From: Rhizaria sp. SCN 62-66 | Taxonomy: Eukaryota | Assembly (NCBI GenBank): GCA_001724265.1 | Contig: MEDY01000137.1 | Coordinates: 1 to 64,000 of the forward strand | Direction: 5' to 3' | Length of the DNA: 64,000 nt | Part shown: piece by piece, positions 54,622-55,605 of the stretch | Layout of the letters: the number at the start of each line of letters is the position of its first letter | Numbering within the stretch: the first letter of the stretch is position 1 | Position numbers and translations under genes: made by a program | Notes under the pieces: model-generated | The model's input: only the letters and a program-made list of their open reading frames with translations | What the model was told of the DNA's origin: nothing | Databases searched by the model: none

Positions 54622-55605
54622 TTACCCCTTGGTGTGACATACAACGCTGCCATTACTCTTAACCACCAGAAACACGACCTGAACGCTACCCTGCTGCATA
54701 CCGTCATCCAGACTCTGTCCCTGCTGCTGCTGCTGCGCCGCCGCCGTCACGCCGGCACTATTGCGCCTGTAGATGGTGAGTTGGCCGGCGATTTCCCCCG
54801 AGTAGCCGCTGTCCAGCTGGCGCAGCTCGAGCGCGACGTCGGATGTGTGGGCGACCCTGGCGGCCAGCGCGCCGGCCGCGACGGGGGGCAGCTCGCTGGT
54901 GAGGCAGCCGACGGGGTCCGTCACGGCCGCGGTGGCCGCTGCGAGCGACCAGGCCGCCGCGGGCACCGACGCGGCGGCCGCTGCGGCGACTGGACCTGCG
55001 GCCGGGGCGGCCGGTGACTGCGCGACGACCAGAGAGCAGCCTCCGGTGGCGGCGGCGGCGGCGGTCGCGGCGCAGGCCCAGTCGAGCGCGAGGTTATCAT
55101 CACTATTGCAGAGAAGAGCGCTGACGTCGGCCAGCGAGTCGATGATAACGCACACACGCTGGGGTGAGACGGTGGCACTAGTTACTGCTGCCGAGGGGTG
55201 GCTGTCAGTCTACTTGATCATGCTCTTCGCTGCTGACGTGATGTGTTTAAGCAGGAACGCAAGCGCGCGCGCGCCGGCGGAGGAGTCGGGCCCCGCTGCG
55301 TCGGCAACCGCAGCCGCAGCAGCGACGTCGACGACCGTGAGCTGCTGCGACGTGACCGCAGTATCGAGCGACGCCGCCCCCATCTTCCGCAGGATATGCG
55401 TGTAATGGTAGATCGGGTGTGATGCGCAATAAAACACGACGCGCGCGGACTGCGCAAGGCAGTGCGCAAGGAACGTGGCCGTGACGGCGTCGCCGGGGGT
55501 TGCCGTGGCGTCGTGGAGCGAGTAGACGGCGCCCGAGGCCCAGGCGGGTGCGGCTGCCGACCAGCCAAGCACGTCCGCAAGCGGATACTGCTGTGCAGAG
55601 GACAT
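54622..55605 (-). CDS. ELP6: Elongator complex subunit 6-like, single exon with one in-frame TAG at 55210-55212
   Basis: N-half HPIYHYTHILRKMG and C-half VCVIIDSL...SDVALELRQLDSGYSGEIAGQLTI are in the same frame and both resemble ELP6. Ends in TAA. Confidence 0.78.

Follow-up and report, generated by a model that had tools for sequence, protein, structure and literature searches.

An in-frame UAG in the ELP6 gene of a probably cercozoan flagellate and a nuclear code in which UAG would be a rare sense codon, probably for glutamate

The ciliate nuclear code in which both UAA and UAG (UAR) specify glutamate is NCBI translation table 30. The available excerpts of the literature indicate that ciliates with this assignment exist (PMC5304391) and that UAG is known to encode Glu only where UAA is recoded as well (PMC5304391, PMC10553269, PMC12153298). 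The nuclear codes described in which UAG alone became a sense codon assign it to Leu, Gln or Ser (PMC5304391, PMC11687900); for example, the rhizarian exLh (Sainouroidea) reads UAG as Leu and Iotanema spirale reads it as Gln (PMC5304391). A nuclear code with UAG as Glu and UAA as a stop was not found in the literature searched, which consisted of partial texts and lay outside most subscription journals. The genome discussed here would use such a code, with UAG as a rare sense codon read as Glu and with UAA and UGA as stops, a reading to which we give a probability of roughly 0.7. We could not find this variant described, and it is apparently new kin to the known UAG-only codes.

The gene encoding Elongator subunit 6 (ELP6) lies in a 64,000-nt stretch of DNA, called the window, whose features are collected in Table 1. 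Its frame runs on the minus strand from the ATG at 55605 to the TAA at 54622, and the sole internal stop is a TAG at 55212-55210, in the context ATC AAG TAG ACT GAC AGC. Thus, the first-pass annotation correctly described two ELP6 halves joined in one frame by this codon, and it was also right that the gene is broken by TAG only, there being no other stop or lesion in the 327 codons. Read through the TAG, the product scores 46.8 bits against Pfam PF09807, above the curated cutoff of 31.6, whereas the halves scored apart reach 15.0 and 25.2 bits, both below it. The intact paralogue that the annotation had wished to see checked was not found in a profile search of the assembly (34.9 Mb, 714 contigs), in which the single match is this gene, although a very diverged copy or an assembly gap could hide another. 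Eight relatives were found, including P0272, which is the gene's own 5′ half ending at the TAG, and P0273 (351 aa, 49% identical to ELP6), which is collinear across the TAG site and up to the last residues, both proteins finishing with the same C-terminal motif. In the relatives, the TAG column falls in an unconserved linker, and because of this position the orthologue alignment, which had been proposed to identify the residue, does not name it. By its frame and profile score, ELP6 is an intact gene and not a pseudogene.

Table 1. Positions in the window of ELP6, its neighbors and the SNF2-type gene.
Feature	Position	Strand	Remarks
ELP6 (Elongator subunit 6) CDS	54622..55605	minus	327 codons + TAA; one exon as read
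In-frame TAG, ELP6 codon 132	55210..55212	minus	variable linker; amino acid, probably Glu (residue inferred)
ELP6 5′ half, 131 aa	55213..55605	minus	public protein P0272 ends at TAG; 7 contigs
ELP6 3′ half, 195 aa	54622..55209	minus	true TAA stop at 54624-54622
SNF2-type helicase frame	22874..31165	minus	2763 codons; ends in TAA
SNF2-type gene TAG 1	28187..28189	minus	in frame
SNF2-type gene TAG 2	27173..27175	minus	in frame, beside short Gln run
ELP6 neighbor, presumably RPL22-like gene	53947..54432	plus	
ELP6 neighbor, presumably thioredoxin-like gene	56007..56851	plus	

That an unrelated gene is broken by the same codon also holds, as the SNF2-type helicase domain in the window is split by two TAGs, and the domain pieces that flank them score 63.5 bits joined versus 27.1 and 39.4 bits apart. 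Another TAG, at window position 7970, was rejected as a sense codon: it is intronic, with a donor upstream. The window also contains, at 958-1293 on the minus strand, a degenerate partial copy of the gene at 2227-6114; its frame is interrupted by a TAA at 960, and duplication of a fragment is its likely origin.

In a strict scan of 654 kb, made up of the window and a 10-kb stretch from each of 59 contigs, and limited to stop codons that follow strongly coding sequence, coding continues past seven of nine TAGs, versus none of 33 TAAs and one of 24 TGAs (1/57 pooled; Fisher p = 4e-7). After the TAG, the frame stays open for 40 codons in eight cases and for 32 in the ninth; clear gene ends account for 56 of the 57 TAA/TGA codons and for none of the nine TAGs. 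TAA is the commonest stop (33/57) and terminates the eRF1, HSP90, ubiquitin and ELP6 genes. In a looser scan of all loci, enriched for TAG because some loci were chosen for holding one, coding continues past 29/67 TAGs, 4/124 TAAs and 4/137 TGAs; neither TAA count is that of a UAR=Glu code or of the PL0344 code, in both of which UAA too specifies an amino acid. In the looser scan, 44 TAA, 40 TGA and 8 TAG codons marked a change from coding to noncoding sequence with no donor motif upstream, and inspection of these eight TAGs revealed two tRNA genes, two sites just before a donor, one frame open for 130 codons and three doubtful cases. A scan with 20 codons was dropped as too noisy (TAG 66, TGA 58, TAA 37). 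The stop-codon pattern is drawn from about 1 Mb of the 34.9 Mb.

In-frame TAGs occur in unrelated intact genes, namely, those for ELP6, the SNF2-type helicase and eRF1, five kinase domains and a ubiquitin-like domain. Eleven of 142 kinase matches contain a TAG, four at intron 3′ ends, two within introns and five in exons. The codon is rare, with at most 26 occurrences in 73,866 codons, intronic ones counted in, and about 20,000 dynein codons (1,274 Glu, 879 Gln) hold no exonic TAG, the one counted there being intronic. The dynein heavy chains (L164-L173) display extreme codon bias (GAA 64 vs GAG 1210; AAA 13 vs AAG 953). Matches with a TAG in a DEAD, a kinesin and two dynein AAA domains were rejected, as the TAG is an intron end; an HSP90 match was set aside as presumed intronic, and a TAG-TAA pair in L156 was an antisense false positive. 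At three further sites (L133:9230 minus, L125:429 plus and L123:5456 minus), a TGA or TAA is flanked on either side by sequence that looks coding; these may represent pseudogenes, errors or selenocysteine. Judged on these sequences, stop-codon recoding is real and genome-wide, UAG is almost certainly a rare sense codon, and the best reading is that UAA and UGA remain stops. The preference for recoding over pseudogenisation expressed at the outset is therefore supported by the lack of a paralogue and of a CAG variant in the searches made, and by the different continuation past TAG and past TAA/TGA.

The eRF1 family search returned three matches, one eRF1 and two further exons that we take to be Pelota. 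The eRF1 found has itself an in-frame TAG (L033:1594-1596, minus; G000:C63) at human position 107, in a column that among 241 homologues, some of them redundant, contains E in 224, D in 15, V in one and a gap in one, with no Q. This TAG lies in a gapless conserved block, so that its removal with an intron is impossible, and the eRF1 letters are matched by the JGI contig L138 with 0/1626 differences, although L138 may share the source. The nearest relative, P0004, has Val at the TAG column, which indicates that this lineage can accept other residues there. The exon with the TAG is codon-biased (GC3 0.89), and the next codon is AAA, used just once for the 16 Lys residues of that exon. A pattern scan of metagenomes for eRF1 relatives returned only the identical contig, and the best 120 matches of a second eRF1 search included no close relatives and no forms cut at the TAG. 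The stop-reading motifs carry the changes T32S, G57S and T58K. All of the 201 homologues with a residue at position 32, the closest relative among them, have Thr there, and Thr32 forms a bond to the G of UAG (PMC5304391, in the part available); the accessible part of PMC12440015 contains no data on T32. Two points weigh against the argument from eRF1, namely, that T58K is common to this protein and P0004 and that T32S retains the hydroxyl.

A tRNA gene with a CUA anticodon is present at L037:1489-1561, minus (G000:C84; Rfam 58 bits), and was one of four matches to a search pattern that is blind to intron-bearing or long-arm genes. The same contig bears host kinase and kinesin genes. The label "tRNA-Pyl" given by ARAGORN was discarded, as it reflects the anticodon only. 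The closest of 24 other tRNA types compared, a set that left out Phe, Pro, Leu(CAA) and others, is the organism's own tRNA-Glu(CUC), with 47/73 identical positions (64%); the identities are 40 with Glu(UUC), 40 with His, 33 (45%) with Gln(CUG) and 32 with Trp, and tRNA-Leu(CAG) is 45% identical, the variable arm of tRNA(CUA) being short. The pairs U1-A72, C2-G71 and C3-G70 of tRNA(CUA) also occur in both of the organism's tRNA-Glu species, the T stem is as in tRNA-Glu(CUC), and the G1-C72 pair of the own tRNA-Gln is absent. The gene has diverged by 36% from its parent with the stems still paired, which suggests an old gene under long selection. No tRNA with a UUA anticodon occurs among the tRNAs in the loci sampled. 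A point against charging with Glu is that C36 is a strong identity base for GluRS in E. coli, according to the excerpt available (PMC9976931).

With regard to the residue, eight of the 20 amino acids were tried at the six in-domain TAGs, and the summed Pfam bits relative to X were E +7.6, Q +6.0, K +5.5, D +2.9, S +1.3, Y −3.4, L −5.1 and W −8.4. These values exclude Leu, Trp and Tyr; Leu is 12.7 bits below Glu, so that the UAG=Leu code of the rhizarian exLh is not matched. Glu is ahead of Gln by 1.6 bits and Lys is best at two of the six sites, and the sum gives little discrimination between Glu and Gln. None of 39 further TAG-centred frames, which included 36 of a set of 61 and left out those already tested or judged spurious, had its TAG at a conserved domain column. 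Glu is favored because the body of tRNA(CUA) is Glu-like and the eRF1 column is mostly Glu, and UAG is probably read as this residue.

Alternative explanations differ in what they leave of this picture. It is very improbable that ELP6 is a pseudogene, that its TAG arose through a sequencing error, or that splicing of a tiny intron or RNA editing takes this codon out of the message. The identical TAG is bridged with zero differences in contigs of two runs from different studies, X1 (a possible source) and X4 (a separate study, run of unrecorded type), both DNA or unlabelled, and the database protein on seven contigs ends there, all of which counts against an error; no read-level CAG, which the first-pass annotation had named as a refuting observation, was seen. 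As to RNA, the pieces of the polyA run X5 extend over 55239-55598 and end 27 bases short of the TAG, with none seen across it among the matches listed, and the contigs of run X6 do not cover it, which leaves some room for editing or splicing. Furthermore, 64 frame-keeping GT..AG excisions of up to 400 nt are possible around the TAG, and four of them keep both conserved flanking blocks. The earlier claim of a sole excision of 12 nt thus did not stand, as the four measure 12, 36, 36 and 60 nt (GC 50-58%, without a pyrimidine tract), but the accompanying statement that its size is far below that of local introns did: four measured introns have 134-292 nt and 37-52% GC, and one was seen spliced in X6. 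Removal by a tiny intron is still disfavored because the four candidates are far shorter than these introns, and the eRF1 TAG in its gapless block is a further point against it. The thioredoxin-like neighbor of ELP6 has a 173-nt intron that is spliced in run X6. A possibly incomplete assembly, from which a second ELP6 could be missing, would favor a pseudogene, against which stand the 327 codons without another lesion; the matching tRNA(CUA) speaks against this whole group of explanations. An improbable alternative is that UAG is mainly a stop, that tRNA(CUA) acts as a weak suppressor and that the internal TAGs are leaky nonsense alleles or sites of regulated readthrough. The rarity of TAG and its absence from dynein exons, the one tRNA(CUA) gene found and the 8 TAG versus 84 TAA/TGA ends of the looser scan would agree with this, yet the strict scan has no TAG that clearly ends a gene, and five of those eight ends are explained otherwise, with three doubtful. 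Likewise opposed to it are the long selection suggested by the intact stems of the diverged tRNA and the fact that no common 3′ readthrough context was found after the internal TAGs. Three TAGs occur in 75 codons of a single low-complexity frame (L137:5266-5487), which also disagrees with termination.

The alternative that UAG is a sense codon for Gln, as in Iotanema (NCBI table 15), is possible but unlikely; it would involve GlnRS acting on the Glu-like tRNA(CUA), an unseen tRNA-Gln(CUA), which the search pattern would overlook if it had an intron or a long arm, or a mixture of Glu and Gln. This residue was also implied by the mention of a CAG in the first-pass annotation, whereas the evidence from eRF1, the kinases and the tRNA favors Glu instead. 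In its favor, TAG neighborhoods contain 12% Q, compared with 15% for CAG and 4% for GAG, three of 32 TAG sites lie inside Gln runs, and one ubiquitin-like copy has a TAG where the organism's own paralogues have Gln. However, all three observations are also expected because TAG arises most easily from CAG where the sequence tolerates change, regardless of what TAG means. The counts within poly-Gln runs put TAG (2) with the missense neighbors GAG (2), CAT (6) and AAG (7) rather than with the synonymous CAA (33), an argument weakened by the general rarity of TAG. The small Pfam difference from Glu is compatible with Gln, as is the report, in the excerpt available, that U35 is a GlnRS determinant and that amber tRNAs can be charged with Gln (PMC9976931). 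Conversely, the only CUA tRNA found is closer to tRNA-Glu than to tRNA-Gln (64% vs 45%) and lacks G1-C72, and Gln occurs in none of the 241 eRF1 homologues at the TAG column.

If UAG is read as Glu, the code may have arisen when a duplicated tRNA-Glu(CUC) underwent C36A, generating the CUA anticodon, and eRF1 lost its grip on the third-position G through the Thr32 contact; UAG gene ends would then have been lost, followed by a slow re-entry of UAG into genes. GluRS would charge tRNA(CUA), which would outcompete an eRF1 that binds UAG weakly, and ELP6 would be made at full length with Glu132. Decoding is probably slow or leaky, as one tRNA(CUA) gene was found and residual termination is possible, and UAG would for this reason be rare and kept out of strongly codon-biased genes.

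More tentatively, the code may be stable and incompletely released, with an old tRNA-Glu(CUA) opposed by an eRF1 that has kept some recognition of UAG, and with the in-frame UAG of eRF1 serving as a negative feedback switch. A hint in this direction is that this TAG lies in a biased exon and precedes its sole AAA codon, whereas the similarly biased dyneins have no exonic TAG; against it, the case is a single gene of a single strain, P0004 has Val at the site, and the chance of such an occurrence is roughly 5-15%. In bacteria, RF2 is produced by a frameshift at an internal UGA. As with RF2 and the readthrough-NMD loop of plant eRF1-1 (PMC5397192, in the part available), a stop codon in the message of the release factor could sense how strong termination is. 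The present eRF1 differs in having the in-frame UAG within the N domain and a cognate tRNA, and its regulation is speculative, as the TAG may be there by chance.

The organism is a eukaryote whose genes contain introns and include 14 candidates for axonemal-type dyneins, and several studies have wastewater, sludge or bioreactor runs in which it occurs; four runs contain half the genome's words or more, and three of these are possible sources. Its HSP90 is at best about 70% identical to anything found, three of the top five EukProt matches are rhizarian, and in a quick tree (73 of 121 rows) it forms a long branch (0.79) grouped with Mataza and two non-rhizarian library labels. The host is therefore probably, though with weak placement, a long-branch cercozoan flagellate. 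An 18S rDNA that is divergent and AT-rich (L002:1501-5945; G000:C706) is putatively linked to this genome; it has four matches to Rfam group I introns and includes a 190-codon frame at 2062-2634 rich in His and Cys, which presumably resembles a His-Cys box homing endonuclease. The ubiquitin genes (L070, L071, L073, L074, L077) are dispersed single units, preceded by an additional Met-Ser and ending in a tail of three residues, and none of the 23 ubiquitin matches, several of which are at contig ends, is a head-to-tail polyubiquitin. Being monomeric, these genes have no junction of the kind at which an extra residue between polyubiquitin monomers is reported for Rhizaria/Cercozoa (PMC12930898); the genetic code is not mentioned in the available part of that paper. 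The available part of the work on Rosculus vilicus (PMC10770858) likewise makes no mention of the genetic code, stop codons or UAG, and this species, with 37.7% GC and no flagella, is unlike the genome discussed here.

Because UAG is rare, automatic checks and annotation miss the recoding, and annotation is already affected, as the database ELP6 protein P0272 ends at the TAG. The organism would offer a natural test case of how UAA and UAG become uncoupled, of how a tRNA-Glu retains its identity after C36A, and of whether codon capture can rest at a stage of low use. Since the organism turns up repeatedly in runs from wastewater and bioreactors, and in more than one study, enrichment and proteomics look feasible.

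Compared with the described systems, for which the excerpts available are the basis, the genome is like exLh and Iotanema in that nuclear UAG alone would be sense and UAA and UGA stops (PMC5304391). Iotanema is also altered at eRF1 Thr32 (T32G, here T32S), and exLh is rhizarian, as the organism here probably is (PMC5304391). In both, UAG is common (in most of 71 genes) and tRNAs were not available, whereas here UAG is rare and one tRNA was found (PMC5304391); furthermore, the Leu of exLh is disfavored here by the 12.7 bits and by the short-arm tRNA. Oligohymenophorea sp. PL0344 (UAA=Lys, UAG=Glu) likewise has a CUA tRNA derived from tRNA-Glu, but there UAA is recoded, UGA is the sole stop and ten CUA tRNA genes exist, compared with UAA as the commonest stop and one gene here (PMC10553269). 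Similarly, Blastocrithidia (UAR=Glu, UGA=Trp) has a cognate tRNA-Glu(CUA) and avoids the recoded codons in highly expressed genes (PMC12153298). In Blastocrithidia and in the UAR=Glu ciliates, however, both UAR codons are recoded, while here UAA and UGA are almost without coding continuation. The phyllopharyngean ciliates (UAG=Leu or Gln) and Scotinosphaera (UAG=Ser) share with this genome a UAG-only reassignment and one or two CUA tRNA genes, and they differ in the residue and in having UAG in 78-91% of genes, as opposed to the small minority that carry it here (PMC11687900).
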